DNA from: an uncultured candidate division Zixibacteria bacterium
GTDB lineage: Bacteria; Zixibacteria; MSB-5A5; SM1-73
Length of the DNA: 64,000 nt
NCBI GenBank assembly: GCA_903908285.1
Contig: CAIVRH010000029.1
Coordinates: 102,037 to 166,036, forward strand
Direction: 5' to 3'
Below are positions 1,859-49,040 of the stretch, piece after piece (positions within the stretch are counted from its first letter, which is position 1; the number at the start of each line of letters is the position of its first letter). Under the pieces are notes generated by a model that did not search any database, had not been told where the DNA came from, and saw nothing but the letters and a program-made list of their open reading frames with translations. The position numbers were made by a program, and so were the translations under genes.

Positions 1859-2380
1859 TTAATATTTCTCCCAATGAAGAATCTCAGATAAGGATTTCTT
1901 CTGCGGTGGTGGTGACCATTTTACCGGTTCGCCTAATGCAATCATCAAGAGCATTCTCTTCTCTCTAGGGACATCCAAAATTTCCTTGAAATGATCTTCG
2001 TGAGGACGCAAACCACCTTCAATCCAACAGCTTCCCCAGCCTAAAGCTCTCGCCGCCAACAGCATATTCACAGTTGCCGATGATCCATCCTCTTTCCAGT
2101 ACTCATTTGTTTCACTTAGAACAACTGCTATTATGGCAGAACATCCGTCAAATTTACCATCTTCATGAGTATTATACTTCCTTCCGGCACTGAAATGATG
2201 TAATATATCATCCAGGGTTTTCTTCTCCGTGACAATCACGAAATCCCATAATTGTCTGTTTACAGCAGAGGGAGCAGCTCTTCCAGCATCCACTATCTTT
2301 TCCAAATCGTTTTTTGGGATTTTTTTACCCGTGAAGGTTCTGATAGTTACTCGAGAGTGAATAGCATCAAATAAATCCAT
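1859..2380 (-). CDS. nitroreductase family protein
   Basis: 173 aa. IHSRVTIRTFTGKKIP...LLAARALGWGSCWIEG is the nitroreductase fold signature. Confidence 0.7.
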   Translation of the reverse strand: MDLFDAIHSRVTIRTFTGKKIPKNDLEKIVDAGRAAPSAVNRQLWDFVIVTEKKTLDDILHHFSAGRKYNTHEDGKFDGCSAIIAVVLSETNEYWKEDGSSATVNMLLAARALGWGSCWIEGGLRPHEDHFKEILDVPREKRMLLMIALGEPVKWSPPPQKKSLSEILHWEKY

Positions 2381-2600: not shown

Positions 2601-4916
2601 CTATTTGTTCTTAACCTCGCACAGCACCGCATACGCCGGATTCAAAGTCACTTTTTGAGGCTTCATCGGCGCCTGGGGCAATTCGAATTGGTTATGAGGT
2701 TTGTCTACCATTAGGCGCAGTACCGCAAATTGTTCCCCGCCGAAATCCAAAAGCACCGGCACCCACATCTTGAAATCCTTCGATACGTTTTCCTGGGTGA
2801 TCTCGCATTTGACCACATATTTGCCTTCGGTGGTCTCCTCGGTAGTATAGGAAAAATCATAGGTGGGGATCTCCACTCCGTAGACCCACTGGTTGAAGAA
2901 CCAATCCATGTCTTCCCCCATATGTTTTTCCACAATCGCCTGGAAATCAGCGGTGGAGGCGTTCTTCCCCCGGTAAGTCTCCACAAAATCCGCCATCATC
3001 TTAAAAAAACGATCATCACTTTTGGTGTCATAATCCATCATCAAGTTTCGCAGCATGTACAAAACATAAGCTCCTTTTTCGTAAATTAGATTCGAATAAT
3101 CATGGGACTTAGATGAATTAAGACGTTCCCCCAGCCAGATGGGTCCGACTTTGGAACCCTCCTGCCACTTATCCCCCTTTCCTAAAATATCATTACACCA
3201 TTCCTTGAGCTGGTCATGAAAAACGTCTTTATCTTTTATGAACAAGTTAGCGAACCAAACACCGGAAAACTCGGCAAAACCCTCGGAGAGCCAATAATCA
3301 TGATAGCTTTCACATCCCACTATGTTACCCCACCATTGATGCGATACCTCGTGCGCCCGGAATGACATCACCTCAAATTCGGTCTCATGCGTTCCTTCAT
3401 CCGCCACAAAAGCAATCCAGGAGAGACGCAAAAGCCCGGGAAAACCCTCTCCGAAGGAAGAGGGGATCTCCGTGGCTAATATCGAGGGGAAGGGACATTT
3501 CCCATAAACCGTTTGAAAGTAATTGAGACTGTTCACCACGTCTGTGGCTACGCTCTCTTTTGATTTTTTAAATCCCTGATAATATACACTGACTTTTGGT
3601 ACACCCTCTACATTCATGTCGTAGGTCTTAAGATTGCCATAAGTGAATGAAAAATATCTAACCGGAATCTCCTCCACCCATTGAGTACAAAGAGAGTCCC
3701 CCTCCACCCATTCCTTCGTTTTTTCCCCGATGGAAGCCAGCTTGTAACTCTTTGGATATTTATAAGTTATATCATAAGTAGCTCTTTGGTACCCATATCG
3801 CGGATACCAATCAGCGCTGGACTTCATATATAAATCTCCATACTCATCCTGCCTGATTATATCCTTACCGTGGTATTTAAAGTTCAATTTATAAATCTCA
3901 TCTGTCTTTGTCGGCAGGGGAAGTACAACCGAGACCCCATACTGGTCATCTTCCTTGATAAAAGGAAGCGAATCACCCTTATCGTCGGTAATCTTTTCGA
4001 TTCTCAAATCCTTGTACAGATCAAAATTAAGTACTCGCAAACCGTCAACCAAACTTTCAAAGTCGATCTCCACATTGGCGGACAATCTCTCCATTACGTC
4101 GATGGTCACGAACATGGTATAGTGGGTAATTTGGATGTCGTCCTTTTGCTCATGGGGAACGGGGGTGTATCCGGCAGAAGGATTATCTTGATAATCTTTC
4201 TTTTGATGAAACGAGCAAACCCGGTCGCGGGCAGAAATACCAGGTAAATCGACCGGTTTCCTCAAGTTTACCTCCTCTATCTGTTTGGGATCGAAGGTGA
4301 AGAAAAAACGACCCTGCTGGCTGGTGTTGACGTCCGCATACAGAAAACCATGGTTCCTATCCGGATTATTCAACGAAGATGAGGAGTCGGCCAGTACGTC
4401 CTCCATAATGCGACACCAGAGATTCCCACCGGTCTCCTTGACAATATGCTCCGGGCGACTACTGATTATCGACTTGAATTTCCCCGTCACCTCTCCGGCG
4501 ATAAACTTAAGCCGATGCTCCAATTCCTGAGCGGTTGTATCCGAAAACAGAAGATACAGCTCGTCGAATGGCGAGTTTAAGCTATCCTGCCCGGTGAACC
4601 GGTTGAGCTGATATTTCTCGATATCATTGGGGGGAGTGAATTCGAAAATCCCTTCTCCCACAAAGACCGCCCCGATGACCTTTCCGTTCACCGGCTGAGA
4701 AAGGCAGATTTTCCCTTTATTCAGCCGGAAGACCGCCGCATCCCTTACCAATACCAGGCTCTCTACCTCTGCTATTTTATTCCCATCCAAAGACAGTTCC
4801 TTGATCTGGTCATAAACTGTGGTTCCCTGCTGTTTTATTTGTCCCAATACCCTGGTGGGAAGAGATAATAAAATTATCCCGCAGATCAGTATATATTTGA
4901 GTTGTTTCATCACCAC
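2601..4916 (-). CDS. secreted M1-family zinc metallopeptidase (aminopeptidase N-like)
   Basis: N-terminal signal peptide (MKQLKYILICGIILLSLPTRVLGQ). HEVSHQWWGN (HExxH) followed by WLSEGFAEF (gluzincin third ligand Glu). Confidence 0.85.
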   Translation of the reverse strand: MVMKQLKYILICGIILLSLPTRVLGQIKQQGTTVYDQIKELSLDGNKIAEVESLVLVRDAAVFRLNKGKICLSQPVNGKVIGAVFVGEGIFEFTPPNDIEKYQLNRFTGQDSLNSPFDELYLLFSDTTAQELEHRLKFIAGEVTGKFKSIISSRPEHIVKETGGNLWCRIMEDVLADSSSSLNNPDRNHGFLYADVNTSQQGRFFFTFDPKQIEEVNLRKPVDLPGISARDRVCSFHQKKDYQDNPSAGYTPVPHEQKDDIQITHYTMFVTIDVMERLSANVEIDFESLVDGLRVLNFDLYKDLRIEKITDDKGDSLPFIKEDDQYGVSVVLPLPTKTDEIYKLNFKYHGKDIIRQDEYGDLYMKSSADWYPRYGYQRATYDITYKYPKSYKLASIGEKTKEWVEGDSLCTQWVEEIPVRYFSFTYGNLKTYDMNVEGVPKVSVYYQGFKKSKESVATDVVNSLNYFQTVYGKCPFPSILATEIPSSFGEGFPGLLRLSWIAFVADEGTHETEFEVMSFRAHEVSHQWWGNIVGCESYHDYWLSEGFAEFSGVWFANLFIKDKDVFHDQLKEWCNDILGKGDKWQEGSKVGPIWLGERLNSSKSHDYSNLIYEKGAYVLYMLRNLMMDYDTKSDDRFFKMMADFVETYRGKNASTADFQAIVEKHMGEDMDWFFNQWVYGVEIPTYDFSYTTEETTEGKYVVKCEITQENVSKDFKMWVPVLLDFGGEQFAVLRLMVDKPHNQFELPQAPMKPQKVTLNPAYAVLCEVKNK

Positions 4917-5114
4917 ACCCCCTGAATTTGATTAGATTTTTTCCTTACGGCAAACCAGCACCGATTCAAGATAATTTAACCCGAAAAATAATATATGTTC
5001 AGGCTGTATAAAAGTAAAGCAACTTTTCTTTTGACACTTAAGAGCCGTGTAATCAAAGACGATAAGAAAATTAAGCTAAAGGGGCGGAATTCAATATTCA
5101 AAAGGGGGGGTTGT

Positions 5115-5657
5115 ATGAACGGGGCCATGTTTAACAGTTTGGCTCGGTATATAGACAAGAACTATCCACGGGTCTCTTTCTCCGATCTATGCCGGGAAGC
5201 ATCCCTGAAGACCAACGTGTTTGCCGAATTGACTTGGTATCCGGATAAAGATTTCATAAAAGTAATGGAGTTTCTCAGTGAACAGACCGAAACCGATCTT
5301 TCCACCCTTTGGAGGGATTTCGGCCGGGAGACTTTCCATTATTTTGCAGACATATTTGGTGATTACCTGCATGGGATTAAAACCTTTCCCAATCTGATAA
5401 CGAACCTGAATCGGATTCATCAACAGATAAAACGGGATGGATTGGGAACTCCTCCCCTGCTGGAGTTTAAGGAGGCTTCTCCCGATCATTTCGAGATAAG
5501 GTATACCTCCGACAGGAAGCTTTACGATTTCTTCCTGGGAATGCTGGAGGGAGCCACAAAATATTACAAAACAGATACAAAGATTCTGGGGAAAAAGGAG
5601 CGCGGCAAACTCATCGTCACCATAACCACCAAACAGCTGGAGCCAGAACTGGTTTAA
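5115..5657 (+). CDS. stand-alone H-NOX (haem nitric oxide/oxygen-binding) domain protein
   Basis: About 180 aa. Candidate proximal His (NRIHQQI), GTPPLL, and the Y-x-S-x-R haem-propionate motif (IRYTSDRKLYDFFLGMLEGATKYY) in the same spacing as characterised H-NOX proteins. AGGGGG RBS before the ATG at 5115. The annotated ORF start at 4995 is probably too long. Confidence 0.55.
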   Translation: MNGAMFNSLARYIDKNYPRVSFSDLCREASLKTNVFAELTWYPDKDFIKVMEFLSEQTETDLSTLWRDFGRETFHYFADIFGDYLHGIKTFPNLITNLNRIHQQIKRDGLGTPPLLEFKEASPDHFEIRYTSDRKLYDFFLGMLEGATKYYKTDTKILGKKERGKLIVTITTKQLEPELV

Positions 5658-5842
5658 ATTAAGAAGAATATCAAAAGAGGGATAGAAAATGTTGGGGTGG
5701 AACTTCTCCGCTAAAAAGTAGAAGCTCCACCCTTTTATTATTGCCGGTTGGGATTCGGATGGCGATGATGAAGATATATTTTGTGAATTCAAGCCGACGG
5801 ACTTAAAATATGATTTGTATTTCTTATTTCCTCCGATGTTTG

Positions 5843-6625
5843 TCATTTCCTTCTTACCATGAACTCACCAAAGGAAGCGCAAATTTCGAATCCTAATTTT
5901 TCATAGCAGGAAATAGCGCTGTGGTTGTCTGCCTTGACGTTCAAACCGATGCAATCTATATTTTTGGACAGGGATTGACAAAGTTTGGCAGTGACCAGTT
6001 TGCCGTATCCTTTGCCTCTGGATGAAGGATGAGTGGTAATGTTCCCCAAAGCTGCCACCCTGTATTCCTCGGAAAAGACGTGAACCCCGGCAATGCTGAC
6101 CAGTTTACCGTCTTCCCGGATACCGAAATACTGATTGGTTTCCAGCATCCTTGAATCAAACCAATTCCCCGGATAGCTCTCTTCATATAGCTGAATCATA
6201 TCATTTTGATCCAACTTGGATAAACGGATAACCTGTGAGCAATCCAATTTCTTGATCACGGACCGATCCTTCAATGTCATCTTGTAGTGCACACCAAAAG
6301 ATTCGAGTTCGAAGCTGTCCTGAACAACCTTCTCCAATCCGGGGCTGAAATGAGCGTAGAATTTAGCGGGCAAAATAGGGAGAATCGACTTGAGCAAATT
6401 CGCCATGTAAGTCGGTGGTTCCGCCAGCGCCAAAAGTGTCGGCAGTGTTAGTCCGGTGTATAGCAAAGCTATGGCTTGAGGTATCTCATTATCAGTGAGG
6501 GCGTACCGGGTAGTATAGGGCCAAAAGAAATCGTCTAAATCTCCCAGCTCATAGATGTGTAGATCGATATTTTTCCGCAGGAAAAGCTCAATCGTTCTCT
6601 TGTCGTGTAAACATATCACCGGCAT
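5843..6625 (-). CDS. GNAT family N-acetyltransferase
   Basis: The C-terminal half has the acetyl-CoA binding motif RGKGYGKLVTAKLCQ...CYEKLGFE. Confidence 0.65.
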   Translation of the reverse strand: MPVICLHDKRTIELFLRKNIDLHIYELGDLDDFFWPYTTRYALTDNEIPQAIALLYTGLTLPTLLALAEPPTYMANLLKSILPILPAKFYAHFSPGLEKVVQDSFELESFGVHYKMTLKDRSVIKKLDCSQVIRLSKLDQNDMIQLYEESYPGNWFDSRMLETNQYFGIREDGKLVSIAGVHVFSEEYRVAALGNITTHPSSRGKGYGKLVTAKLCQSLSKNIDCIGLNVKADNHSAISCYEKLGFEICASFGEFMVRRK

Positions 6626-8280: not shown

Positions 8281-8835
8281 TTACTTCACGACAAAACGCT
8301 CGATCCACTGTTCGAATGCTTGCAGGAATTTCTTCAGGTAATCTCTTGTCGAATCGTTGATCAAATTCCCTTTGTCGTCGAACAAGCTGGCAGCATTGCC
8401 GATGTATGCTTCTGGCTGTCCCATGGTGGGCACGTTGACGAACACCAGAGACTGCCTGAGGTGATGGTTGGCGCCAAAAGCACCGAGCGCACCTGTGGTG
8501 CAGCTGATGACCGCGCCCGGTTTACCGTTCCACGTGTTTTGTCCATATGGACGCGATCCCATATCGATGGCGTTTTTCAAAACGGCGGGAACCGAGCGGT
8601 TATACTCCGGTGTAACAAACAGAACGGCATCGGCCGATTTGACCCTCTGCCTGAATTCGTTCACTTCTTTGGGCGGATTTTCCTCGAGATCTTGATTGTA
8701 GAACGGCAGATTGCCGATTTCGACGATTTCAAGCTTGAGCGATTCCGGCGCCAGAACAATTAATGCTTTTGCTAATTTGCGATTCCACGAATCCCTACGC
8801 AAACTGCCGACAAAGACTGCTACATTCTTGTACAT
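8281..8835 (-). CDS. NADPH-dependent FMN reductase family protein
   Basis: 184 aa. MYKNVAVFVGSLRRDSWNRKLAKA...VLFVTPEYNRSVPAVLKNAIDMGSRPYG is the FMN_red/ChrR/ArsH-type fold. Confidence 0.8.
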   Translation of the reverse strand: MYKNVAVFVGSLRRDSWNRKLAKALIVLAPESLKLEIVEIGNLPFYNQDLEENPPKEVNEFRQRVKSADAVLFVTPEYNRSVPAVLKNAIDMGSRPYGQNTWNGKPGAVISCTTGALGAFGANHHLRQSLVFVNVPTMGQPEAYIGNAASLFDDKGNLINDSTRDYLKKFLQAFEQWIERFVVK

Positions 8836-11189: not shown

Positions 11190-12140
11190 TCAACCATGAA
11201 TGATCTGCTCGAGTAAGAATCCGGAGATATCGGTTTTGATCTGTATCCACAACGGGAGGTGGTCGGAGAGCTGGTAAGTGAATTCCTCTTTTTTCATACC
11301 GTCCGGGAAAAGTTCCTGGATATGGGCTTCGTCTATGAAGAAATCGAGCACGCCCCCTGCATTGCTAAAATTCTCCGGGTAGTTTGGATAATGGAGGATC
11401 TGATCATAGCGTTTACTTTTGGCGAGATCAGTGCCGGGGGCATCGAGGAGCTTATCGGGAATCTTCAGGCCGTATTTGGTGATGGCCTTGAACGTGGGGT
11501 CCTCGCGCGAGGGGATGTTGAAGTCGCCCATGATCATGAAGTCATGGTCTTCTGCAAATTTGTCCAGACGCTTGCCCTCGATCCAGGCGGCCAACATGGC
11601 TATTTCGCCCTCGCGCCCCTCCATGCTGTCGCCCCACCGAATGTGCGTGGTCAGCACCACGAAATCGAAGATGCCGGATTTGAAGGAAGCGAGGTAAGGA
11701 CTTCGCCAAAAGGACTTCTCGGACAAATATTCCTGACCTATTTTCTTGCGCGGCTCGTTCGCCTCGGCGGCCAGTCCGTTGAAGGTGGCAGCCCGCTGGT
11801 CATAAACATAAGCCACGCGTTCCCGGTTGCCGCCTAGGTCGGGGATGACGTCCGAGAAAACCGCGCGCCAGTAAGGTCCGAGGATTTTTAAAACCCGGCC
11901 GAGGTCAGCGAGATTGTCTCGCAATTCAACGATCCCAATCAGATCGAACTGGCCGAGGATTTCCGCAATGTAATGGATGGCCGCTTCACTGCGTGGTGTC
12001 TTGCCAAACTCCCGGATGTTCCAGGTGGCAATATTCAAGGTTTCGTCGAGTTTCGACGAGGGAATTTTCGCTGCCTGAATGCGCTTCTGCAAGGCAATCA
12101 AACCCCGGGCAATGTCCGGAGAAACATCTCCATGTTCCAT
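11190..12140 (-). CDS. endonuclease/exonuclease/phosphatase (EEP) family protein
   Basis: 316 aa. IATWNIREFG near the N-terminus, GDFN, and C-terminal SDHLPLW are the EEP catalytic motifs. No signal peptide. Confidence 0.75.
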   Translation of the reverse strand: MEHGDVSPDIARGLIALQKRIQAAKIPSSKLDETLNIATWNIREFGKTPRSEAAIHYIAEILGQFDLIGIVELRDNLADLGRVLKILGPYWRAVFSDVIPDLGGNRERVAYVYDQRAATFNGLAAEANEPRKKIGQEYLSEKSFWRSPYLASFKSGIFDFVVLTTHIRWGDSMEGREGEIAMLAAWIEGKRLDKFAEDHDFMIMGDFNIPSREDPTFKAITKYGLKIPDKLLDAPGTDLAKSKRYDQILHYPNYPENFSNAGGVLDFFIDEAHIQELFPDGMKKEEFTYQLSDHLPLWIQIKTDISGFLLEQIIHG

Positions 12141-12409
12141 AGGTATCCTCCTTTACCGCTTGTACTACTATTTATCAGTTATATGGAGCATCTAAGCTAC
12201 TAACTGACAATGAATAAGCAGATAGGTCAATTATCCTAAAGGATGATCGACAATTTTTCCCATCCAGCAGTCTTGCAGACATACTTAACCTACTATTACC
12301 GGGTCGTGACAGCACATAACTACCATCGAGCTAACGCAAGAGGGTCAGGTGTAGGTAGAACGTCACCCGGACCCTCCGGTTAGGCCAAATAGAAATAGTA
12401 GAGCAGCCA

Positions 12410-13246
12410 TCAATCAAATTTCAACTCGCGTTTGGTTGCCTCGCATTCCAACTGCGGAGTCTGGTTGTAGTGCCCTGCGTTCAGGTGGGCGCGGATTTTT
12501 GTCAGCACCTGTGCACGGGAAAGCGAATTGTTACAGGCGTACATTTCTTTGCAGAAATAGTAAGTGAACGCCCCATGCCAACCACCGGCGATATGGGCAT
12601 CCGCACTCGTCTGGTCGGCACGGCAGGCAGCCCAGAGGATGTGATGCACGATCCCCTTTTCCAGCAACCCGCGCGCGAGTCCGCGAGATCGCTTCCCTTC
12701 CACCTCGATGAATGCCTCCAACGATGGGGGCGGCAGGTAGCGCGGCGTTCGATCAAGCAGCAGGTCAACCGCCTTGAGTCCCGTACCGCTGTGGCAGGTA
12801 TCCAAGTAAACCTCCAAAAGCACATTGGGAGGAAGCTGGATGAACAAATCTCGCAGCTCGTCATCCACGATGACATGATTCCTGTCCCATTGGTTGCCTG
12901 CCTGGGTCAGGTCATGCGGGCAAAACGCCTCATCCGCACGATCAGGTTCATCGTGGTTTAAATCCGGCACCTGTGTGCCATGACTTGACAGGCTGAATAC
13001 CAAGTAGGAGTATTTGCCTGCTTTTGCGCCATCTACCATGGTTTTGAGGTTGCTCATGATATTGGCTTTTGTGGCTTGTGCATCGTGTAGCTGGGTAATA
13101 TCTGTGCCGGCAAATCCGAGCAGCTTCTGCAGCAAAGCCGACATTTCGTTGGCATCATTGACACAACCTTGCAACGTAGAACCGGGATAGTTCTTGAACT
13201 GATTGATTCCGACACATAGGGCTTTTCTGTTACTAGGCATAAGCAC
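12410..13246 (-). CDS. caspase-like peptidase (family C14)
   Basis: 278 aa. KALCVGINQFKN...LQGCVNDA, catalytic His in SSHGTQ, and catalytic Cys in DTCHSG. No signal peptide. Confidence 0.8.
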   Translation of the reverse strand: MLMPSNRKALCVGINQFKNYPGSTLQGCVNDANEMSALLQKLLGFAGTDITQLHDAQATKANIMSNLKTMVDGAKAGKYSYLVFSLSSHGTQVPDLNHDEPDRADEAFCPHDLTQAGNQWDRNHVIVDDELRDLFIQLPPNVLLEVYLDTCHSGTGLKAVDLLLDRTPRYLPPPSLEAFIEVEGKRSRGLARGLLEKGIVHHILWAACRADQTSADAHIAGGWHGAFTYYFCKEMYACNNSLSRAQVLTKIRAHLNAGHYNQTPQLECEATKRELKFD

Positions 13247-13490
13247 CTCCTTAGGTTGTGCTCGTTGGGATTGACAGGACCGTTCAGTAACGAGCCAGAC
13301 TAAGCCGGTCCCCTTTCATTGAACTTCATCCTCTGACTGATTTTCCCCTCATTTTTACAAAAGCACTCTTTTCCCTGGCATAATGTCAAGCGTCGGTGGC
13401 TGGGTGGGCGCTTTTTCCTCTCCGTCCACGAACACCCGAATCAGGCGACGGTTTAGCTTGACAGCAATTACAGCCTAACTCACTTTTGAC

Positions 13491-14438
13491 TTAAAACTTA
13501 AACTGTCCGGTATCGATCCACTCATTCTTTAGAACTGACCACCAATCAACAGCGAGTCCTTTCAACACATAGTCATAAGGGAGCCAACCATAACCGCCGG
13601 TACCCCATTCTGGACCCCAAGAGTTTCTGATGAGTAAGGCTCCTGTGGTTTCGACACCTCCCGGATTGGTGTTTTTAATCGTCATTCTATCGTCGTAACC
13701 AACGGCATCAATGGCATGACCACCTAAAATCTTCTCTCCGGGTGTGGGAAAAGGTATCTTTCCGGTTGTGGCAGCCTGGGATAAGGAACTATACACCGTA
13801 AAGCCGAACATCGAGGGTAGATAAGCAGCTAAATTTGTCTTGATCCGATTCAGCAGAGCATCCTTAGGAGTTCCAGGCGGATCATAACGGTAGTAGCTAA
13901 TCGCCTTGTAGCTCTGGGCGTAGGCATAGCAGAATGCCGGCGGCTCCAGATCAAAGTGGTAGGTTGGAACAATAGGCTCGCCGATTCCTTTATCGGTGTA
14001 CGGCCAATATTCCTCCGGGGGCACGCCAAATAATACCAATGCGCCCATGGTGGTACGAAGAAAGGCTCCGGTGTCTCCAGACCAGTGTAACATGTTTCGG
14101 GTTGCCTTATAAAGGAAGAGTCTGGAAGCATCAATATGTTTTCCGAAGGCCTTTTTCTCAAAATACTCTACTATTCCAACACCCGCATGGGCCGTGCATG
14201 AACCAAGACTAAGTTGGTTCTCGATAGGAGAGCACCAGGGCCTTAAATCTGCAGATACCGGCAGGCTTACTCCCGCCGGTTCCGCTACTCCTGCTTTCTT
14301 GAGCATGGCCTTAACAGAATCTGCCTGTCCCAAAGCTTTAAGCGTTTCAGGAATATCTTCTTGCTCTACCGTGTGGTCCCTGAAATCGGGATAATCCGGT
14401 AGCCATCCCATTCCCAATTTTTCAATGATCTCAGCCAT
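13491..14438 (-). CDS. papain-like cysteine peptidase (family C1)
   Basis: CSPIENQLSLGSCTAHA (oxyanion Gln plus catalytic Cys), GGHAIDAVGYDD (catalytic His), and NSWGPEWGTGGYGW. The start is taken at the internal ATG at 14438, which has a GGAGGTG RBS; the longer ORF start at 14537 is unlikely. Cytoplasmic. Confidence 0.8.
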   Translation of the reverse strand: MAEIIEKLGMGWLPDYPDFRDHTVEQEDIPETLKALGQADSVKAMLKKAGVAEPAGVSLPVSADLRPWCSPIENQLSLGSCTAHAGVGIVEYFEKKAFGKHIDASRLFLYKATRNMLHWSGDTGAFLRTTMGALVLFGVPPEEYWPYTDKGIGEPIVPTYHFDLEPPAFCYAYAQSYKAISYYRYDPPGTPKDALLNRIKTNLAAYLPSMFGFTVYSSLSQAATTGKIPFPTPGEKILGGHAIDAVGYDDRMTIKNTNPGGVETTGALLIRNSWGPEWGTGGYGWLPYDYVLKGLAVDWWSVLKNEWIDTGQFKF

Positions 14439-15146
14439 AATATACACCTCCAATTCAATTAGGACCTTAGTTTGTCGAGTTTTTCTACCAAAACAACCTA
14501 CAAGACAGCAATCCGCTTTGCTAACTAATCGCTTCACCTCCTTTCAGCGCCAATCATAATGCCGCCTAACTCTGAATATACTGCCCGGTATAACACCCGG
14601 GGTACCGCTCCGAGTGTTATATAATACACAGCAGAAAAAACTGTCTACTTGGTCATATCCGATGAAATATCAGGTGGTCACATCGAGACGCCGGTTTTAT
14701 CGCAGCGTCTTCTTTGCGTCAATAGAGATTCCTTCGTGTCTATTTTTATACAACTAAGTCAAGAACCTGATACCGCTAATATTTATCAAGTTTATAGGGA
14801 CTTAGCCTGCGAACCTATTATAACTACCCCTAATTATATTTCTGTATTCTATTCTTAAAAAATATAGGACTACTGTCAAATTTTGTCAAGCTTTTTTTAT
14901 AATATTTCTGAAAAATCGTTCCTACGGGGCTTGATGCCCCTTCCTCCAACATTGAGGTCTTAAAGACCGAAGGGCAGGATGAAGCTCTCTTGTGCGTTGG
15001 TAACCTATTGAGATTCAACACGAAAACGAGCAGAGTCTACCTTAAGCAGGATTATTTTTGGCATTTATTCAGGGCTTTATATGGGGATATTTATGATTAA
15101 TAATTTCTATCGACTAAGATTAATTGAGGATATTGCTTCCGACCGC

Positions 15147-15296
15147 TATTTTATCAATCTTCTTTTCATCAGCTTGATGCCGATGTAGAAAGCGGCGGTT
15201 TCGAGGAGAACGATGTACAAAAAGTCCAGCGCCAAGCCCGGTGAAGGCTCGCCGGAAAAAGCTCAAGCGGGAGATATTTACTGCGTGGGTAAGGTG
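15147..15296 (-). pseudogene. degenerate copy of the ABC-2 permease 3' end
   Basis: About 150 bp, same orientation, roughly 90% identical to 20545-20700. Confidence 0.65.
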
Positions 15297-15310
15297 GAGA
15301 GTTTTTCTTA

Positions 15311-15375
15311 AACCTCTCCCCCTGTCCTAAGGATCTTCGATATCCCACTCTCCACATTTGTGGAGAGAGGGACTA
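15311..15375. repeat. family-1 variant between the permease fragment and the FMN-reductase fragment
   Basis: aacctctccccctgtcc...cccactctccacatttgtggagagagggac. Confidence 0.55.
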
Positions 15376-15386
15376 TTGGGCGGCCA

Positions 15387-15414
15387 AGAATAGTGTCAGG
15401 AGCACGAGGCTCCT
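15387..15414 (-). repeat. cassette-boundary element, copy b
   Basis: agaatagtgtcaggagcacgaggctcc immediately downstream of the FMN-reductase 5' fragment. rc has a GGAGC-ctcgt-GCTCC hairpin. Confidence 0.5.
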
Positions 15415-15424
15415 AACCTGCAAA

Positions 15425-15533
15425 CTTGCGTGGCTAAGGGCGCCAGCGCGATCAATGCTTTTGCCAATTTGCGATTCCACGAATCCTTCCGCAAACTGCC
15501 GACGAAGACTGCCACATTATAGTTCTTATTCAT
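15425..15533 (-). pseudogene. degenerate 5' fragment of a FMN-reductase gene
   Basis: rc reads MNKNYNVAVFVGSLRKDSWNRKLAKALIALAP... It matches 8735-8835 and is followed by a premature stop. Confidence 0.6.
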
Positions 15534-15544
15534 AATGATCCTTT

Positions 15545-15571
15545 AGAATAGTGTCAGTAGCGCGGGGCTCC
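15545..15571 (-). repeat. cassette-boundary element, copy c
   Basis: agaatagtgtcagtagcgcggggctcc, 5-30 nt downstream of the stop of gene 15576-16046. Confidence 0.5.
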
Positions 15572-15575
15572 AGAC

Positions 15576-16046
15576 CTACTTGCTCTTGCGTGTACACCGC
15601 CCTTTGTGTTTTTTTCTATCCCAAAATAGACTTCGCCAACTTTTAATCTCGAAGGGAACGAGGGCATTGTGCAGAGTTGAAGTACCTCTTGTCCGGACAT
15701 ATCGACCATTTTTCCGGCTCCAACCATGATCGTCGACAATTTTCTCTGCTTCAGAATAAGGCATTCCAAAGGCCCGGGTCTGCAACTCTGTCCCCACATT
15801 CCAAAGATAAACAATGTAGAGATCTGGAATTTTCAGATATTTCTGGTCCGTGAAGAACTCCTCTCCAGAAAAAGACTTCAACTGAAGAGGGAGGGCTCGG
15901 AAACCTTCATCCACGCAATCGGTATAGACGATGAGATCTATCCCTTCGTCAATGTCTGGGCGAGCAAACTTTATTCCCTCTCGGTAAAGCTTCTCTGCAA
16001 CGTAAGCTTCCCCGATTTTTTCGATTTGATGGCTCGATAGTTCCAT
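15576..16046 (-). CDS. small PD-(D/E)xK (Mrr-cat-like) nuclease-fold protein, hypothetical
   Basis: 156 aa. EKIGEAYVAEKLYREG...PDIDEGIDLIVY...LPLQLKS fits the D...D/E-x-K (QxK variant) pattern of Mrr-type catalytic domains. This is a weak call. Confidence 0.35.
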   Translation of the reverse strand: MELSSHQIEKIGEAYVAEKLYREGIKFARPDIDEGIDLIVYTDCVDEGFRALPLQLKSFSGEEFFTDQKYLKIPDLYIVYLWNVGTELQTRAFGMPYSEAEKIVDDHGWSRKNGRYVRTRGTSTLHNALVPFEIKSWRSLFWDRKKHKGRCTRKSK

Positions 16047-16088
16047 TTTATCTTTTCAGACTGGATATCTCGATTAAGACTCTTATCT

Positions 16089-16146
16089 CAAGTGCCCTGC
16101 GCACCTGAAAAACGAATAGTGGCAGGAGCATGAGGTATCTGACATA
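16089..16146 (-). repeat. cassette-boundary element, extended copy d
   Basis: caagtgccctgcgcacctgaaaaacgaatagtggcaggagcatgaggtatctgacata, downstream of the REC gene stop. Confidence 0.5.
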
Positions 16147-16205
16147 ATACAGCTACTAACTACTTTGTAGCAATACAGTTGTTGTAGCTAACTTAGTATT
16201 AGAAC

Positions 16206-16952
16206 TCATGTTGGTTGTTTTTTCCCAACTTTGATAGGATTCGACCGACTCTCTGCAATTGTCGTAATGGATTTTTGCACCAAACTCTCAATGGAGTAAC
16301 AAAACTCTATATTTTGGAAACGTACAATCATAACGTCTTTACTAATATTCTCAACTTGTTCCGGCTTATATGCTGTATAGAAGATAACTGGGAGGTCCCG
16401 AATTACAAGATCATCATGTTTCTCGCGTAGTTCTTTTATTTGCTCCATACCACCGTAGGTAGCATTCCCCTGTTTGTCTCTCCATTGAATATCCGATATA
16501 ATCAAGTCAAAGTCATTATCTTCCTCGATTCTTTTCTTAATGGTTTCCGGTGTGGCTGATATAACCTCAATTCCCAATGCCCTCAACAAGCGCCTCTCAC
16601 CAACAACCACATGTGGATTATCGTCTATCCAGAGGATTCTTCCCCCCTGCGCTTCAGCAATTTTGGAACCCAAACTCGCAAGCAGTCTTCTGAGCTTCTT
16701 AGGTTGAGCATCTAACATTCCATATAACGCTCCCTGAACCTGCGGTTGTTCTAATTGCAACTCGACGCCACCAGCCTTAAAGTATTTCAGTCTTTCCCAA
16801 GGAAGAACCAAGATCAAAACTGCAACAACAAAAAGCACAAGAATAGTGGTATCCATATTGTGACTTGCGATATCATGCATTTTCAACCTCATTAATATAA
16901 TTAACATCGCGAAACCGGTTAGTCCGAACTTTATCCCGAGCCACGTTTTCAT
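16206..16952 (-). CDS. membrane-anchored stand-alone response-regulator receiver (REC) domain protein
   Basis: Two N-terminal transmembrane helices, then a canonical REC: ILWIDDNP (acidic pair), DLIISDIQW (phospho-acceptor Asp), VIFYTAY (Thr), YKP (Lys). No output domain and no kinase nearby. Confidence 0.7.
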   Translation of the reverse strand: MKTWLGIKFGLTGFAMLIILMRLKMHDIASHNMDTTILVLFVVAVLILVLPWERLKYFKAGGVELQLEQPQVQGALYGMLDAQPKKLRRLLASLGSKIAEAQGGRILWIDDNPHVVVGERRLLRALGIEVISATPETIKKRIEEDNDFDLIISDIQWRDKQGNATYGGMEQIKELREKHDDLVIRDLPVIFYTAYKPEQVENISKDVMIVRFQNIEFCYSIESLVQKSITTIAESRSNPIKVGKKQPT

Positions 16953-17090
16953 TTGTTACCCTCGCTTGATTGGTTGACCTAGTAAATGTTTGCTATTCAA
17001 CTATTAACTATATGGTTACTTCATCTCACATTTTTGACACTTACCAGCGACAAAAAGGATTAATGTGCATTGGTTCCAAAGATTCACAGA

Positions 17091-17147
17091 TCAAGTGCCC
17101 TGCGCACCAGACAAATGAATAGTGTCAAGAGCACGGGACTGCTGATC
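17091..17147 (-). repeat. cassette-boundary element, extended copy e
   Basis: tcaagtgccctgcgcaccagacaaatgaatagtgtcaagagcacgggactgctgatc, downstream of the ABC ATPase stop. About 80% identical to copy d. Confidence 0.5.
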
Positions 17148-17208
17148 TACCTACTATTTCGCCTCTCCAATCTGAAACTAAAAATCCTTAATAAATTTTT
17201 TATCTTAA

Positions 17209-19002
17209 TCAGAATTTTGGCAAATTAAACAAGGTGCCAGCCTGTCCCTCATCATTTAGTTCCCTGATAATTTCTTCTTTCTTGAATTCAATAACCTTGT
17301 CATTTTCATCCCTTGGTAAATCTGCAGTAATTATAGTCAAGATGTACTGCAATCCATAGGAACCACAATATTCCCTGACAAGTTCTAGAAAATTATTCTT
17401 CTTTCTGTTATCAAGGCCCTCAAGGATGCCATCATGGTAAACGAATCTGAAAAAAGAGCGTTTTGCATAATTTTTCAATATGGCCAAATCGAAAGCAGCG
17501 CAAAGTAGCTTCTTGTAGGTTGTTCCTCTGCCTTCGCTTGTTGCCTCCATAGTTTTTTCATCATGGACAATATCAGCACTAAAGTCAATATTGCCCATAG
17601 TATTAATCTTAATAGACAATAAAGCTGAAATATTCAAAACTGCTTTGATAATCCTGTCAAAATCATTTCTAATATCGGAATATAAGCTCGCTCCAGCCTT
17701 AATTTGGTCGTTGATATTGTCAACAAGCCCTTTTCTCTTCTGTTCATATCCATCTATCTCTTTTTGTATGACAGCAACTGAATCAAGAGTCTCAAGCTGA
17801 GAATGCAGTCTTACTAAATCAGTCTCCTGGTGCACTAAGCTTTTCTGTAGCAATTTAAACTTATCAAAAGTATCTTCTCCTCGTAATATTCTGAGAAGAT
17901 CCTCTCTTTTTGAATTTAAATCTCTCAGTTGTCCGCATACCGAATCCTGCTCTTGCTTCAAAGTTTGAAGCCTTTCTTTTAGTCTCTTATTTCTTTCAGC
18001 AGAAATATTCTCATTAAATTTTACTAAATCCGTGTAGCCTTTCATCAGTTTATCAGGAAAATGAATCTGTGTTTCCTCAAATATCTGTTTTACTTCATTC
18101 AAGTCAAAATTGACTTTGGCTTCTAGAGCATCCTGAATTTTCTCAATCTCATAATTAATGTTGTAAACCTGATCATTAAGAGAGGCGATTTCAGTCTCAG
18201 TCTTCTCGACTAATTCTTTATTAATACTGAGCTCTTTTTCATAAAAATTAAACCTATCTATCTTTTCATAAGCTTCTTTTATTTCCCTCTGCTTTATTTC
18301 AATGGCTCCTTTTAGCTTGTCATATTCCTCTGTCTTTGTAGTCAAGGTCTTTTTATATTCCGCCTTGTATTTCTCCCTGCTCTCTATTGTCTTATCTATT
18401 TCATATTTCTCTTTCAACAAAGAGTCATCAAAACCCAATAATTTTGCAAGATAAGGCTTCCATTGAGAATGTTCCCCAATGCTGAATTTGCTTATCTGGA
18501 AAACATCTTGATAATCGCTTTGCGTCCTCAAGAAATAAGAAACACCTTTCCGGTAAGGCCATGGTGCTATCGAATCAAGATCAAGATAGGAATTAAGACT
18601 GTCTACCGCCTTCCGGATTGGCATTCCGCTGTAATCCCATTGCTTTTCTCCATGATTTTTAAAATCCTGGAATTTATCGTCATGAATTTTGAAACATATC
18701 TTGGTATTGTTATCAACACATCGTTTGATGGTTAGATATTTACCTGAATTAAGCAGTATCTCCAGATAAAACTCGAATCCCCTGAACTCTTTTTTATTGT
18801 CATAAAGAAAGTGCCCATCTTTCAACTCCTTAAGTAAAAGAAAATCAATAAGATGAATAAGGAGGGTTTTACCTAGATTATGTGAATCTTTATAAGTTTC
18901 CTTGGGTCTTCTGACTTTCCCATAAATTACATTAAAGCCTTCATTAAAGTGGATGGGCTTAAATATCTCGTCTCTGTTTGAATATATCTTGCTTAGTTTC
19001 AT
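17209..19002 (-). CDS. SMC-like ABC ATPase with a long coiled-coil insert (Lamassu LmuB / ABC-3C ATPase-like)
   Basis: 597 aa. N-terminal KLSKIYSNRDEIFKPIHFNEGFNVIYG...SHNLGKT (Walker A). About 300 aa of KE-rich coiled coil. C-terminal ...GRGTTYKKLL...FFRFVYHDGILEGLD (signature / Walker B / D-loop analogues). Confidence 0.6.
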   Translation of the reverse strand: MKLSKIYSNRDEIFKPIHFNEGFNVIYGKVRRPKETYKDSHNLGKTLLIHLIDFLLLKELKDGHFLYDNKKEFRGFEFYLEILLNSGKYLTIKRCVDNNTKICFKIHDDKFQDFKNHGEKQWDYSGMPIRKAVDSLNSYLDLDSIAPWPYRKGVSYFLRTQSDYQDVFQISKFSIGEHSQWKPYLAKLLGFDDSLLKEKYEIDKTIESREKYKAEYKKTLTTKTEEYDKLKGAIEIKQREIKEAYEKIDRFNFYEKELSINKELVEKTETEIASLNDQVYNINYEIEKIQDALEAKVNFDLNEVKQIFEETQIHFPDKLMKGYTDLVKFNENISAERNKRLKERLQTLKQEQDSVCGQLRDLNSKREDLLRILRGEDTFDKFKLLQKSLVHQETDLVRLHSQLETLDSVAVIQKEIDGYEQKRKGLVDNINDQIKAGASLYSDIRNDFDRIIKAVLNISALLSIKINTMGNIDFSADIVHDEKTMEATSEGRGTTYKKLLCAAFDLAILKNYAKRSFFRFVYHDGILEGLDNRKKNNFLELVREYCGSYGLQYILTIITADLPRDENDKVIEFKKEEIIRELNDEGQAGTLFNLPKF

Positions 19003-19015
19003 TTTCTATTATTGT

Positions 19016-19264
19016 TTACGTATTATTTTTACCAATAAATTCCAATGAATCTGTCTGTAAGTGGTATTCGATCATGCCGAGTAAATATAAAAAATCCAAC
19101 GACGGCACAAAAACATGTTTTACATCTTCTCCAATCTTGCCAACCAAATACTGCAATACCTCACTATATTCCATTACTCTGTTATTCTCGAACAGCTTAA
19201 TAAGCATGGAGGATACCCTGACTACAGATAAGTCCAAATCCATATATTTTGTCGGGGTTATCAT
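19016..19264 (-). CDS. small alpha-helical 'middle component' (LmuC-like) of the ATPase module
   Basis: 82-aa ORF tightly sandwiched between the effector and the ATPase: 4-nt overlap upstream and a 13-nt gap downstream, which suggests translational coupling. Confidence 0.35.
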   Translation of the reverse strand: MITPTKYMDLDLSVVRVSSMLIKLFENNRVMEYSEVLQYLVGKIGEDVKHVFVPSLDFLYLLGMIEYHLQTDSLEFIGKNNT

Positions 19265-20199
19265 TTCTTCTCACCTATATCGCAATTACAGTACATATAA
19301 TGCAAAAACACATTTATCAAAGTTCGCGATTCCCTAAGTTCGGGATGCTTGTCAAGTATTGTATCGTAAAGATGCTCAAAAATTTCTTCGAATTTGGCAA
19401 ATTCATTCTTTCTTGTGATTATCTTCCCTTTCAACTCATCAATCGTATTGTAGTAGTAATCTGTATACTTCTTGTTTATCAGCTTCTTTAGGAAAGCTGT
19501 TATTGCATTAAAGGAAGACTCCGAATTTTCCTTGATATATTTAAAATACTCTTCACTCAACTTATTCAGCTCGTTCTTTGTTTCAAGGCTTACATAGTCG
19601 AACGAGTACTTGCTGTCAAATTCCGTAGCAACCTGCTCTCGGTCATTATAAAAAGCTACGATAACATCCCTTATGTCATCAGAGTGTATTCTTAATGGAT
19701 CTCTGAATTTCTCAAGGTTACAAGTTTTTACTATGGCAGGATTCGCATCAAGCCAAAGAGTAATCGCCTCAACTCCAATAATCTCAACATTGGAAATGCT
19801 AAGATTATTCTTGAGATAATCCGTTTGCTGCTGATGTGCTTCAGCAGTAAGTTTTCTGTTTGTGAAAATGAGATAATTATCAACTTCTCCATTTTGTTTT
19901 AACTTCTTAATTTTGGGGATTTCTTTGTCCAATATCTTAGTCTTAAAATCCGCATGAGAACAACTCGAGTTAGGGTTATTAGTCTTTTTTGCCTGAATAA
20001 TAAATTTTCCTGTCCATGGTCTTGCAGCACTTGGATACTGGTTTGAAGTGCCTTCAAACTTCCCATCTCTACCACCATCTGGCCCTTCACTGAAATTTAT
20101 GGTTCCAATTCCCAATATTTTTTGGCAAATATGGATAACCAGATCCTCAAATTTCTGTGTAGAAAGCTCGTGAAGATGATAATCCCTCATTATAAACAC
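19261..20199 (-). CDS. Mrr-type restriction-endonuclease-fold effector protein
   Basis: The N-terminus FEDLVIHICQKILGIGTINFSEGPDGGRDGKFEG...GKFIIQAKK matches the Mrr_cat pattern (F-E-x-L...G...G-DGG-D-G...IQ-x-K). The C-terminal ~170 aa have no recognisable domain. Confidence 0.55.
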   Translation of the reverse strand: MFIMRDYHLHELSTQKFEDLVIHICQKILGIGTINFSEGPDGGRDGKFEGTSNQYPSAARPWTGKFIIQAKKTNNPNSSCSHADFKTKILDKEIPKIKKLKQNGEVDNYLIFTNRKLTAEAHQQQTDYLKNNLSISNVEIIGVEAITLWLDANPAIVKTCNLEKFRDPLRIHSDDIRDVIVAFYNDREQVATEFDSKYSFDYVSLETKNELNKLSEEYFKYIKENSESSFNAITAFLKKLINKKYTDYYYNTIDELKGKIITRKNEFAKFEEIFEHLYDTILDKHPELRESRTLINVFLHYMYCNCDIGEKK

Positions 20200-23236: not shown

Positions 23237-24649
23237 TTATTTCCCTATACAAAACTCAGAAAATATCTTATTCAAAATGTCATCCGTTACCGTTTTCCCC
23301 ACCACTTCACCGATGGCATCCAAAGCCCCCTTGACATCCAAAGCCACAAACTCCGGACTCATCTTATTTTTTACGCTATCCATGGCCAGGGACAAGCTCT
23401 TCTTCGCTCTCAAAAGCGCATCCTTGTGCCGGATGCTGGAAAGAAGCACCCCCTGGGTCTGGTCTTTTTGTAAAACCAGTGAGCTTGACACGATCATGTC
23501 CTTCAGACTATCCAGCCCCTCACCTTTTAATGCTGAAACTTTTACAATTGACTTGTCTTTGAGTTTTTCCATATTCTTCCGGACCAAATCCGCTGAAGCT
23601 ATATCGATTTTGTTGAAAACAAGCAGATATTTGTTTTTTAAAGTTATCATTTCCTGCAGGAGATTCAAGTCCTCTTCATTGATTTCAGATGAAGTGTCCA
23701 TGACCAAAAGGAGCAAATCCGCTTCGCCCATTTCGATTTTGGTCCGTTTGATCCCCTCCAACTCGATGATATCTTTGGAGATTCGATAACCCGCAGTGTC
23801 CACCAATCGCACCGGGATTCCTTTGAAATTGGCGAACTCCGAGATCACATCCCGCGTGGTTCCGGGGATAGGGGTCACGATAGCCCGGTCTTCTTTCAAA
23901 AGAGCATTCAGCAGGCTCGATTTCCCCACGTTGGGTTTGCCGATGATGACAACGTTCAAACCTTCTTTAAGGATTTTCCCCTCATTATATGTGGAAAGCA
24001 AGTCGTTGATCTCGTTTTGAATCGATTGAAGCTCTTCGATTACTTTATCCCCCTCTAATGGCTCGATCTCCTCCTCCGAAAAATCTATTTCCACCTCTAA
24101 CCTGGCTAAAAGATCGATCAACCTGTCCCGATATGAATTGATTTTCTCCGAAAGATCCCCCTTTAGATGCTTTAATCCTAGTTTCAATCCCAAATCGGTC
24201 TTTGCCCGGATCACCTCTGCCACTGCCTCTGCTTGAGAGAGATCGATACGGCCGTTTATGAATGCACGCAAGGTGAATTCCCCCGGCTCCGCCAAACGAA
24301 CCCCACATTTCAAGGTTTGCTCCAACACTTTTGAAACCACCAATTGACCCCCGTGACAGCTGATCTCCACCAGATTTTCGGTGGTATAGCTGTTGGGCGC
24401 TTTAAATACAGTAAGAAGAACCTCATCCACGGTATCGCCGGTTTGCGGATCGATTATTTCCCCGTAAGTAACCCGATGAGAACTTATCTGGCTGACCGGC
24501 TTTTCGCCTTTAAAGATTTTCTCTGCAATTTTGACGGCATCCTTCCCCGAAAGGCGAACGATCCCGATACCCCCCTCCCCCAAAGGAGTGGAGATGGCGG
24601 CTATGGTATCCTCAATTGAAGAAAGATTTCCTGTGTTTCCCTTTGACAT
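23237..24649 (-). CDS. mnmE: tRNA modification GTPase MnmE (TrmE)
   Basis: N-terminal DTIAAISTPLGEGGIGIVRLSG, G-domain GKPNVGKSSLLNAL / DTAG, and a C-terminal CIGK motif. The start is taken at the internal ATG 24649; an alternative start is 24697. Confidence 0.9.
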   Translation of the reverse strand: MSKGNTGNLSSIEDTIAAISTPLGEGGIGIVRLSGKDAVKIAEKIFKGEKPVSQISSHRVTYGEIIDPQTGDTVDEVLLTVFKAPNSYTTENLVEISCHGGQLVVSKVLEQTLKCGVRLAEPGEFTLRAFINGRIDLSQAEAVAEVIRAKTDLGLKLGLKHLKGDLSEKINSYRDRLIDLLARLEVEIDFSEEEIEPLEGDKVIEELQSIQNEINDLLSTYNEGKILKEGLNVVIIGKPNVGKSSLLNALLKEDRAIVTPIPGTTRDVISEFANFKGIPVRLVDTAGYRISKDIIELEGIKRTKIEMGEADLLLLVMDTSSEINEEDLNLLQEMITLKNKYLLVFNKIDIASADLVRKNMEKLKDKSIVKVSALKGEGLDSLKDMIVSSSLVLQKDQTQGVLLSSIRHKDALLRAKKSLSLAMDSVKNKMSPEFVALDVKGALDAIGEVVGKTVTDDILNKIFSEFCIGK

Positions 24650-24712
24650 GGAAAAAATATAAGTGTTTTGAGATGGAATGTAAAGAGAAGGAAACAAATA
24701 AACCTCTCCCCC

Positions 24713-44543: not shown

Positions 44544-44705
44544 ACACTTGCTCCTTTCAATTTATGAATAATTCTCTTTTTCTGCGAATCTTGTCATTGG
44601 TTTTAACGGTTGCAAAATTCATTTCCACGTCAATTGATGGAAGCTTGCAGATGAGAATAAAAACGACTTCGATTCACCCGTCTTGAGCTTCGACACCAAA
44701 ATCGA

Positions 44706-45386
44706 TTATTTCTTCTTAACCTCCTCCTTCAAACACTGACAGCAAGGATCCAAATAACACAACGCATCCTCGTATTCCTCCAGGCAGACCGGCGAAACAT
44801 TCAAGCAGGAACCGCAAACCACCCCCGGAGCATCCGGTCCCTGGCAGCGAAGCTGGCAGGCCGGGCAGATATACATGCATCCTCCGCACAGCCGGCATTC
44901 TTCGGATCGAATATCAAAAGGCGTGGTGATCTTCCGGGTTTCCCCTCGGTTCACGAAACCGATGGCTTTGCCGGACATCTGTTCGGAACACATCCGGACG
45001 CATAACCCGCACAGGATACAATCGTCATGCCGCACTTTGAACCGGGTTTTCTGGACTTCCATGGAAGCCGCCAGATCCTGGATGGTTTTAGAATCCGGGC
45101 AGGTGGCCAAGAGAAGCTCTACCACCATCTTGCGCGCGGCACTCACCCTGCGGGTGTGGGTCCTGACCTCCAAGCCCTCTTCGGCCGGATAGGTGCAGGA
45201 TGAGACCAGCTTGGCGTTTGGCCCGGTCCCAATCTCGACCAAGCAGAGCCGGCACGCCCCGTAAGGGGACAATCCTTCATAGTGGCACAGGGTGGGTATG
45301 GGAAGCCCGTAAAAACGCGCGGTTTCGAGCAAAGTCCACCCCTCTTCGGCTTGTACATCCACTCCATTCAGTTTTAATTTCAACAT
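44706..45386 (-). CDS. [2Fe-2S]/[4Fe-4S] ferredoxin protein resembling the NuoG/HydA N-terminus
   Basis: N-terminal 2Fe-2S ferredoxin fold (CHYEGLSPYGACRLC), followed by CxxCxxC clusters. Confidence 0.6.
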   Translation of the reverse strand: MLKLKLNGVDVQAEEGWTLLETARFYGLPIPTLCHYEGLSPYGACRLCLVEIGTGPNAKLVSSCTYPAEEGLEVRTHTRRVSAARKMVVELLLATCPDSKTIQDLAASMEVQKTRFKVRHDDCILCGLCVRMCSEQMSGKAIGFVNRGETRKITTPFDIRSEECRLCGGCMYICPACQLRCQGPDAPGVVCGSCLNVSPVCLEEYEDALCYLDPCCQCLKEEVKKK

Positions 45387-45423
45387 AGGTTTTTCCTTTA
45401 TCTTGCGCTTTATAGATTACGAT

Positions 45424-48400: not shown

Positions 48401-48585
48401 CTCTTTTTGTTAATCTCATCCGAAAATGCTTTTACCACCTTCTCGCAACCGTAAGCATGACAGCCCGTTCCACTGCATACGGTGATACAGGGTTTTTTAT
48501 CGGCGCTTCTTTCCCTCATCTTAGTCTCGATGATGTTCTTCAGGTCCTCTATGGTTTTCATCTTGATAGCCTTTCTTTGTGGCAC
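45424..48585 (-). CDS. fusion of NuoF-like NADH-binding flavoprotein (51-kDa subunit) with GltD-like FAD/NAD(P) oxidoreductase
   Basis: 1053 aa. N-terminal thioredoxin-like 2Fe-2S. NuoF motif [13 protein letters not shown]. 4Fe-4S ferredoxin. C-terminal GltD-like [29 protein letters not shown]... Confidence 0.8.
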   Translation of the reverse strand: [1053 protein letters not shown]

Positions 48586-48597
48586 GAATGAATGATT

Positions 48598-49005: not shown

Positions 49006-49040
49006 AATAATTCTCCCCGAATGTTTGAAAGAAATATCGA

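Follow-up and report, generated by a model that had tools for sequence, protein, structure and literature searches.

H-NOX (haem nitric-oxide/oxygen-binding) proteins, a family that binds haem b and a diatomic gas, are bacterial relatives of the animal NO receptor, and their biology has been worked out almost wholly from genes that adjoin their partner enzyme. Stand-alone NO-sensing members from Proteobacteria, Bacteroidota and Cyanobacteria have a distal haem pocket without the O2-binding tyrosine, and in facultative anaerobes the stand-alone sensors bind NO (and CO) while keeping O2 out. Solved free-standing proteins of ~180 aa include those of Shewanella oneidensis (SO2144/HnoX, 4U99), S. 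woodyi (6OCV), Kordia algicida (6BDD) and Nostoc (2O09). In the Tar4 MCP of Caldanaerobacter subterraneus subsp. tengcongensis, the H-NOX domain (Tt H-NOX; 1U55, 1U4H, 1XBN) forms one protein with a membrane chemoreceptor and uses Tyr140, Asn74 and Trp9 to bind O2; in animal sGC beta1 the H-NOX domain is joined to PAS, coiled-coil and cyclase domains. The genes of the stand-alone NO sensors adjoin one that encodes a histidine kinase or else a GGDEF/EAL enzyme (PMC8738867). According to the same source, the distal tyrosine is requisite for O2 binding, the proteins that bear it being MCP fusions of obligate anaerobes; glycine hinges are kept in all H-NOX groups; and a zinc site of three cysteines is known in the Vibrio cholerae H-NOX and inferred for most H-NOX groups (PMC8738867).

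In the literature that was searched, neither orphan H-NOX genes nor the H-NOX proteins of Zixibacteria turned up as a topic. To our knowledge, this candidate phylum has no cultured member. Here, we characterize a stand-alone H-NOX gene (hnox) in the window, by which we mean the whole 64-kb stretch of DNA that was analyzed, and compare it with its relatives in other genomes and with the systems described above.

Identification of the H-NOX protein

The hnox reading frame encodes 180 residues plus a stop codon, with the N-terminus MNGAMFNS. The initial annotation had proposed a stand-alone H-NOX protein of about this length, and the product matches the Pfam HNOB profile (PF07700) over nearly its entire length (profile positions 2-161 of 163) with an E-value of 3.8e-27 and a score of 95.6 bits, over the curated threshold of 25.5 bits; a search with the product against NCBIfam matched 0 models. 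When the PDB was searched with phmmer, the best match was Tt H-NOX (E ~1e-18, 32% identity over residues 42-164), followed by the Kordia, Shewanella and Nostoc proteins at 1e-4 to 1e-2. A profile built from the clade of close relatives improved these scores to 1e-20 for Tt H-NOX and to between 1e-8 and 1e-11 for most others.

To compare the protein with the H-NOX fold, which pairs a helical distal subdomain with an alpha/beta proximal one, a structural model was generated with AlphaFold2 from 30 homologues (pLDDT 81, pTM 0.78), in which six helices are followed by a four-stranded sheet. Foldseek's best 47 matches in the PDB comprised no chains other than those of H-NOX or sGC; TMq values were 0.70-0.84 for the subset from H-NOX and sGC beta1. 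The top matches, at TM 0.80-0.84, comprised the Tt, S. oneidensis and Nostoc H-NOX proteins and sGC beta1. Tt H-NOX, the closest solved sequence, gave a TM of 0.80, and the four stand-alone proteins gave 0.74-0.84 at 14-22% identity. With sGC beta1 (TMq 0.70-0.76, 16-20% identity) the product shares the fold, the proximal histidine of helix alpha-F (H105 in sGC beta1) and the YxSxR motif, whereas the fused domains of the animal protein have no counterpart in it.

The motifs singled out in the initial annotation, namely a proximal histidine in NRIHQQIK, the GTPPLL segment and the Y-x-S-x-R haem-propionate motif, all fall in register with their Tt equivalents in the HMMER alignment (Table 1). 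The glycine hinge between the subdomains is likewise in register (Gly70 here, G71 in Tt). Residues 1-41 have no HMMER alignment to Tt H-NOX, but with the clade profile the product is collinear from residue 1 onward with the NO-type stand-alone proteins; by this collinearity only, Met5 and Leu9 would be the equivalents of Tt Ile5 and Trp9. Both an MCP domain and a membrane segment are absent from the 180-residue product, which is free-standing, unlike the chemoreceptor-fused Tt domain, and its sole cysteine is C26.

As judged from the sequence comparisons and the predicted fold, 5115-5657 is confirmed as a genuine stand-alone H-NOX gene and a member of a known family. Every class of residue that holds the haem is kept (His102, Y130-S132-R134, Pro114 and Gly70), and the product is predicted to bind haem.

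Table 1. Features of the hnox locus and of its product, with positions in the window or, for residues, in the 180-aa protein.
Feature	Position	Strand	Basis or remark
Upstream element specific to hnox, three blocks, ~60 nt	5004..5065	+	Conserved in 16 loci
Block 1, CTGTATAAAAGTAAAGCAACTTTTC	5004-5028	+	Alignment of upstream regions
Block 2, CTTAAGAG	5037-5044	+	Alignment of upstream regions
Block 3, AGACGATAA	5057-5065	+	Alignment of upstream regions
Ribosome-binding site, AAAAGGGGGGG	5100..5110	+	4 nt before the ATG at 5115; read from sequence
hnox coding sequence	5115..5657	+	HNOB, PDB alignment, AlphaFold2/Foldseek, family alignment, codon-position diversity
Terminator-like hairpin (5694-5733), then UUUUAUUAUU	5694..5742	+	Between the convergent hnox and GNAT genes
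mnmG, cut by the window start	Upstream of hnox	-	
Small FMN nitroreductase-family gene	1859..2380	-	Pfam PF00881, E 1.8e-26
M1-family peptidase, divergent from hnox	2601..4916	-	Pfam PF01433
GNAT acetyltransferase, convergent with hnox	5843..6625	-	Pfam PF00583
FMN reductase	8281-8835	-	Downstream of hnox
Endonuclease/exonuclease/phosphatase protein	Within 11190-20199		Probable defence island
Caspase-like Peptidase_C14	12410-13246		Probable defence island
Papain-like Peptidase_C1	13491-14537		Probable defence island
DUF4365 protein	Within 11190-20199		Probable defence island
Weak receiver-like protein	16206-16952		Probable defence island
DUF2326	17209-19002		Probable defence island
Mrr_cat + CTD12 protein, ABC-3C type	19261-20199		Probable defence island
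mnmE	23237-24697		After an ABC transporter
gyrA	27341-29860		Beyond mnmE
Proximal haem ligand	His102 = Tt His102		In NRIHQQ; HMMER alignment to Tt H-NOX
Proline beside the haem	Pro113/Pro114 = Tt Pro114/Pro115		In GTPPLL; HMMER alignment
Y-x-S-x-R propionate clamp	Tyr130, Ser132, Arg134 = Tt Tyr131, Ser133, Arg135		HMMER alignment
Distal tyrosine position	Phe139; Tyr140 in Tt		HMMER alignment
Hydrogen-bond network position	Thr73; Asn74 in Tt		HMMER alignment

Gene model and transcription signals

Two competing reading frames overlap hnox, and both had been suspected of being artefacts, a view that the homologous loci bear out. The in-frame extension to a start at 4995 is rejected, as stop codons break it in 13 of the 14 homologous loci that were checked (the exception being L017) and all 30 aligned homologues start at MNGAMFNSLAR, whose 11 residues are invariant except for A4. 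In 12 of 14 homologues, 1-11 stops interrupt the antisense frame at 5187-5846 (- strand, 219 aa), which is codon-aligned with hnox; in the window this frame is open because hnox makes almost no use of TTA, CTA and TCA. Two loci, L017 and L024, have it free of stops over the whole hnox coding sequence, although it is broken in most homologues.

Among 15 orthologues, the mean pairwise DNA diversity in the H-NOX frame is 0.22 at the first codon position, 0.12 at the second and 0.48 at the third, so that position 3 is about four times as diverse as position 2, and hnox is under purifying selection.

A Shine-Dalgarno sequence precedes the start codon (Table 1) and is conserved across 16 aligned upstream regions, where homologues read AAAAGGAGGG. 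Downstream of the stop codon, the hairpin at 5694-5733 folds with -21.1 kcal/mol (z -3.2), and 0 of 200 shuffled sequences were as stable; a simple terminator scan did not call it. With this putative terminator and an upstream element of its own, hnox is a single-gene transcription unit, in contrast to the canonical hnoX-hnoK and hnoX-DGC/PDE modules, in which the partner adjoins: here the gene is monocistronic and lies on the opposite strand to its neighbours.

Conservation and distribution of the clade

A word-indexed search of 5.8 billion proteins returned 92 relatives of 57-100% identity, nearly all of 180 aa, and every one that carries a taxon name comes from a Zixibacteria MAG. Among the 30 aligned homologues, which span the same range of identity, H102, G70, F139 and C26 are invariant, and Y130, S132, R134, P113 and P114 are each conserved in at least 90%. 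A pattern census of the 85 full-length members (~180 aa) found NxIH in 83, YxSxR in 80 and a single cysteine in 77; a perfect YxSxR is thus absent in five members.

An exhaustive HMMER search of 1.84 billion representatives at 50% identity recovered the clade as a single cluster, and the next relative outside it has only ~30% identity (E 3e-15). Beyond this relative lies a mix of ~180-aa stand-alone and ~600-aa proteins, and the two ~600-aa sequences that we read are chemoreceptor-like fusions. In a scan of one genome per GTDB species, 16 hnox loci were found, seven of them labelled Zixibacteria; the other nine bear placeholder labels ('uncultured Ignavibacteria bacterium', 'uncultured bacterium') and share the Zixibacteria synteny. 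The hnox clade is distinct, tight and restricted to Zixibacteria, in the sense that its named members are all Zixibacteria MAGs.

The nearest outgroup proteins, P0094-P0104 (~27-31% identity), resemble the clade in being stand-alone proteins of ~175-190 aa and in sharing NR(V/I)HQQ, TPP, YxSxRKL and a phenylalanine at the distal tyrosine position, whereas none has the Zixibacteria upstream element or synteny. Their gene contexts vary. P0099 (~30% identity) has a HisKA/HATPase_c kinase 11 nt downstream, unlike the Zixibacteria hnox, and kinase partnering thus exists near the clade; P0094 too stands alone, with unrelated genes around it, so unlinked H-NOX genes also exist outside it. The genes downstream of P0096 are uninformative. 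P0095 is followed in its locus (L045) by a gene at 3656-5389 for a 577-aa protein in which FAD_binding_6, NAD_binding_1 and Fer2 domains are fused to multihaem cytochrome c motifs, and then by genes for a Tll0287-like protein and a cNMP-binding protein, which may represent a non-canonical H-NOX neighbourhood. P0094, P0096, P0097 and P0099 carry a cysteine-rich C-terminal motif (e.g. TETQCMKRGAPCC) that the Zixibacteria clade lacks entirely, and three of these four (P0094, P0096 and P0099) have a Pfam match to V4R.

Genomic context and candidate partners

In its region of the window, hnox is the sole + strand gene among - strand neighbours. The M1 peptidase and GNAT acetyltransferase on its two sides, recognized as such in the initial annotation, were recovered by Pfam (Table 1), and a ~17 kb block that begins with the GNAT gene and extends to ~22.9 kb parts hnox from mnmE. 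A comparison of 25 related loci revealed a conserved backbone, parB-parA-rsmG-mnmG-(bPH)-nitroreductase-(M1 peptidase or rRNA-IVP gene)-hnox(+)-mnmE, with an M1 peptidase between the nitroreductase and hnox in some relatives only. Several genomes have hnox flanked by the directly divergent nitroreductase on one side and by mnmE, as the next gene, on the other; because the backbone there runs without them, the M1 peptidase, the GNAT gene and the ~17 kb block are read as variable insertions. The M1 peptidase and GNAT genes are accordingly insertions into a housekeeping backbone and not meaningful neighbours. In the loci L012 and L013, hnox stands alone on its strand between mazG and cysS or a B12-radical-SAM gene.

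That no signalling partner is obvious nearby, as had been remarked at the outset, holds well beyond the adjacent genes. No HisKA, HATPase_c, GGDEF, EAL, HD-GYP or MCP domain was detected among the ORFs scanned in the 64-kb window, a set that takes in most ORFs of 120 aa or more that were considered real genes; the one match of a signalling type was a sub-threshold receiver (REC), which belongs to the defence island (16206-16952). For 129 neighbour ORFs of hnox in 16 non-redundant loci, a Pfam census, which displays families present in more than two loci and could miss a sporadic partner, found no histidine kinase, GGDEF/EAL/HD-GYP or MCP among the recurrent families, these being only housekeeping families, GIDA, GidB, ParA, bPH_2, Dockerin and others. 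With no recurrent signalling neighbour in 16 loci, orphan status belongs to the whole clade: orthologues in at least 16 other genomes are without a recurrent adjoining signalling enzyme.

Three of the most distant clade members have a + strand gene 65-130 nt after hnox (L007, 10665-11138; L008, 10673-11164; L025, 10665-11130), whose product is a putative lipoprotein of ~163 aa without a Pfam family. As an operon partner of hnox it was rejected, since it is absent from the window (tblastn) and from most loci.

Within the clade, no neighbour accompanies hnox more persistently than the small nitroreductase, whose PDB relatives are generic nitroreductases and NADH oxidases. It lies no more than two genes from hnox in 13 of ~17 informative loci and is directly divergent from it in L007/L025, L008, L018, L020 and L023. 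This raises the main alternative, that the H-NOX protein relays no signal and works with the flavoprotein, either as a buffer or carrier that binds NO or haem and whose haem the reductase would keep ferrous, or by direct control of the enzyme. The reductase-cytochrome fusion next to the close outgroup P0095 is compatible with such a pairing, and in a published genome-neighbourhood network (PMC8738867) nitroreductases figure among the families that recur no more than five genes away from hnox in other H-NOX groups. However, the pair sits inside the housekeeping series parBA-rsmG-mnmG...mnmE, where shared descent can account for the synteny; L012, L013 and L015 keep the upstream element with no nitroreductase near hnox; an M1 peptidase or another gene intervenes between the two in many genomes; and the nitroreductase is a generic small FMN enzyme. 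On balance, we consider a partnership of this kind improbable. We would give a similarly low probability to any clade output other than a histidine kinase, a c-di-GMP enzyme or a chemoreceptor; such an output might be control of, or redox coupling to, a flavoenzyme (e.g. the nitroreductase), or non-signalling handling of NO, and might entail a dedicated regulator acting on the 60-nt element.

The window also contains several features apart from the hnox neighbourhood. A probable defence island occupies 11190-20199, between hnox and mnmE (Table 1), and no relatives of its genes were found in the related loci that have mnmE directly after hnox. Dockerin domains occur in a DUF362 protein (24968-26635, - strand) and, together with He_PIG, in a second M1 peptidase (39596-41836, + strand); dockerin-bearing proteins recur beside hnox in the related loci L004 and L008. 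A redox cluster at 42954-49607 encodes a glutamate-synthase-like protein, a 2Fe-2S/4Fe-4S ferredoxin protein, a 1053-aa fusion of a Nuo51 FMN domain with a pyridine-nucleotide-disulphide oxidoreductase, and a thioredoxin-like 2Fe-2S ferredoxin, and is followed by a glutamate dehydrogenase gene (49832-51100). At 54585-60053, three tandem paralogues (558, 514 and 561 aa) carry SBBP beta-propeller repeats, two of them also with FlgD-Ig and type IX secretion C-terminal sorting domains.

The upstream element

Every orthologue has the three conserved blocks upstream of hnox; they lie about 50-110 nt from the start codon, and farther away in the most distant members. The element moves with hnox into the alternative context of L012 and L013, where the neighbours are different. 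Block 1 occurs once in the window, against an expectation of 0.05, and across 433 kb of related loci it is found only upstream of hnox. A strict two-block pattern, searched in exact form so that diverged copies would escape, was found on 16 metagenomic contigs and precedes hnox in all 15 that could be checked. As a route to a co-regulated partner the element was therefore rejected, for it reveals no regulon, all placeable copies preceding hnox itself.

A structured 5' leader or riboswitch was rejected: the Rfam search of the element gave no match, RNAalifold on 13 upstream sequences gave neither a consensus structure nor covariation, and the compensatory changes apparent by eye differ inconsistently between loci. 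With no Rfam match and no consensus RNA structure, the element is read as acting at the DNA level. It is most likely a promoter, in which blocks 2 and 3 would supply a -35-like TTAAGA and a -10-like GATAAG with a spacer of 16-17 bp, and the A/T-rich block preceding TTAAGA is probably an UP-element or operator; a simple sigma-70 scan called no + strand promoter upstream of hnox. Comparison of the blocks by eye with NsrR, NorR, FNR/DNR, Fur, ECF-sigma and sigma-54 sites yielded no convincing resemblance.

Predicted ligand and mode of action

The distal pocket is the basis on which a ligand can be predicted. Given that the distal tyrosine is reported to be requisite for O2 binding (PMC8738867), the phenylalanine at this position (Phe139) predicts an NO-type pocket that excludes O2, and the product is predicted to be an NO-type rather than an O2 sensor. 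The best PDB match of the clade is nevertheless the O2-binding, MCP-fused Tt type and not the NO-type stand-alone proteins, and a ligand prediction from a single residue could for this reason mislead.

The alternative that the protein senses O2, as the Tt domain does in the chemoreceptor of an anaerobe, draws on this similarity (E 1e-18 for Tt against 1e-4 for the NO-type proteins, with 32% identity over residues 42-164) and on the presence of ~600-aa proteins, the length of MCP-fused receptors, among the nearest relatives. Against it, two of the three residues by which Tt H-NOX holds O2 are replaced at aligned positions, Tyr140 by the invariant Phe139 and Asn74 by Thr73, and the third, Trp9, corresponds by collinearity only to Leu9; the tyrosine is the one reported as requisite for O2 binding (PMC8738867), and the protein has neither an MCP fusion nor a membrane segment. 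We therefore judge O2 sensing highly improbable. A thiol or zinc redox sensor that works without haem, of the V. cholerae kind, to which the invariance of Cys26 in the aligned homologues and the reported haem-free redox sensing by H-NOX (PMC8738867) might point, is extremely unlikely, because the single cysteine of 77 of the 85 members makes the C-terminal zinc site of three cysteines (plus a histidine) impossible, the cysteine-rich C-terminal motif of the outgroups is absent, and all the haem-binding residues are conserved.

We favour, with moderate confidence, a haem-binding H-NOX gas sensor of the NO type that acts in trans. With Phe139 invariant and Thr73 in place of the Tt asparagine, NO (and CO) would be bound by the ferrous haem and O2 excluded. 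With a ligand in place, the two subdomains, distal and proximal, would shift relative to each other at the glycine hinge, as is typical of the family. A partner whose gene lies at another site in the genome would detect this shift in trans; a histidine kinase or a c-di-GMP enzyme is, by analogy, the most probable candidate.

Implications

The picture of the H-NOX family is unchanged by these results, and some members of the clade are already named haem NO-binding domain proteins at NCBI. What is mildly unusual is the clade-wide absence of a linked partner together with a private upstream element. For the physiology of Zixibacteria, the hnox clade adds predicted NO sensing. For the family, a clade whose haem residues are intact, whose genes are unlinked and whose upstream element is private would offer a clean case of how an unlinked H-NOX protein finds its target.
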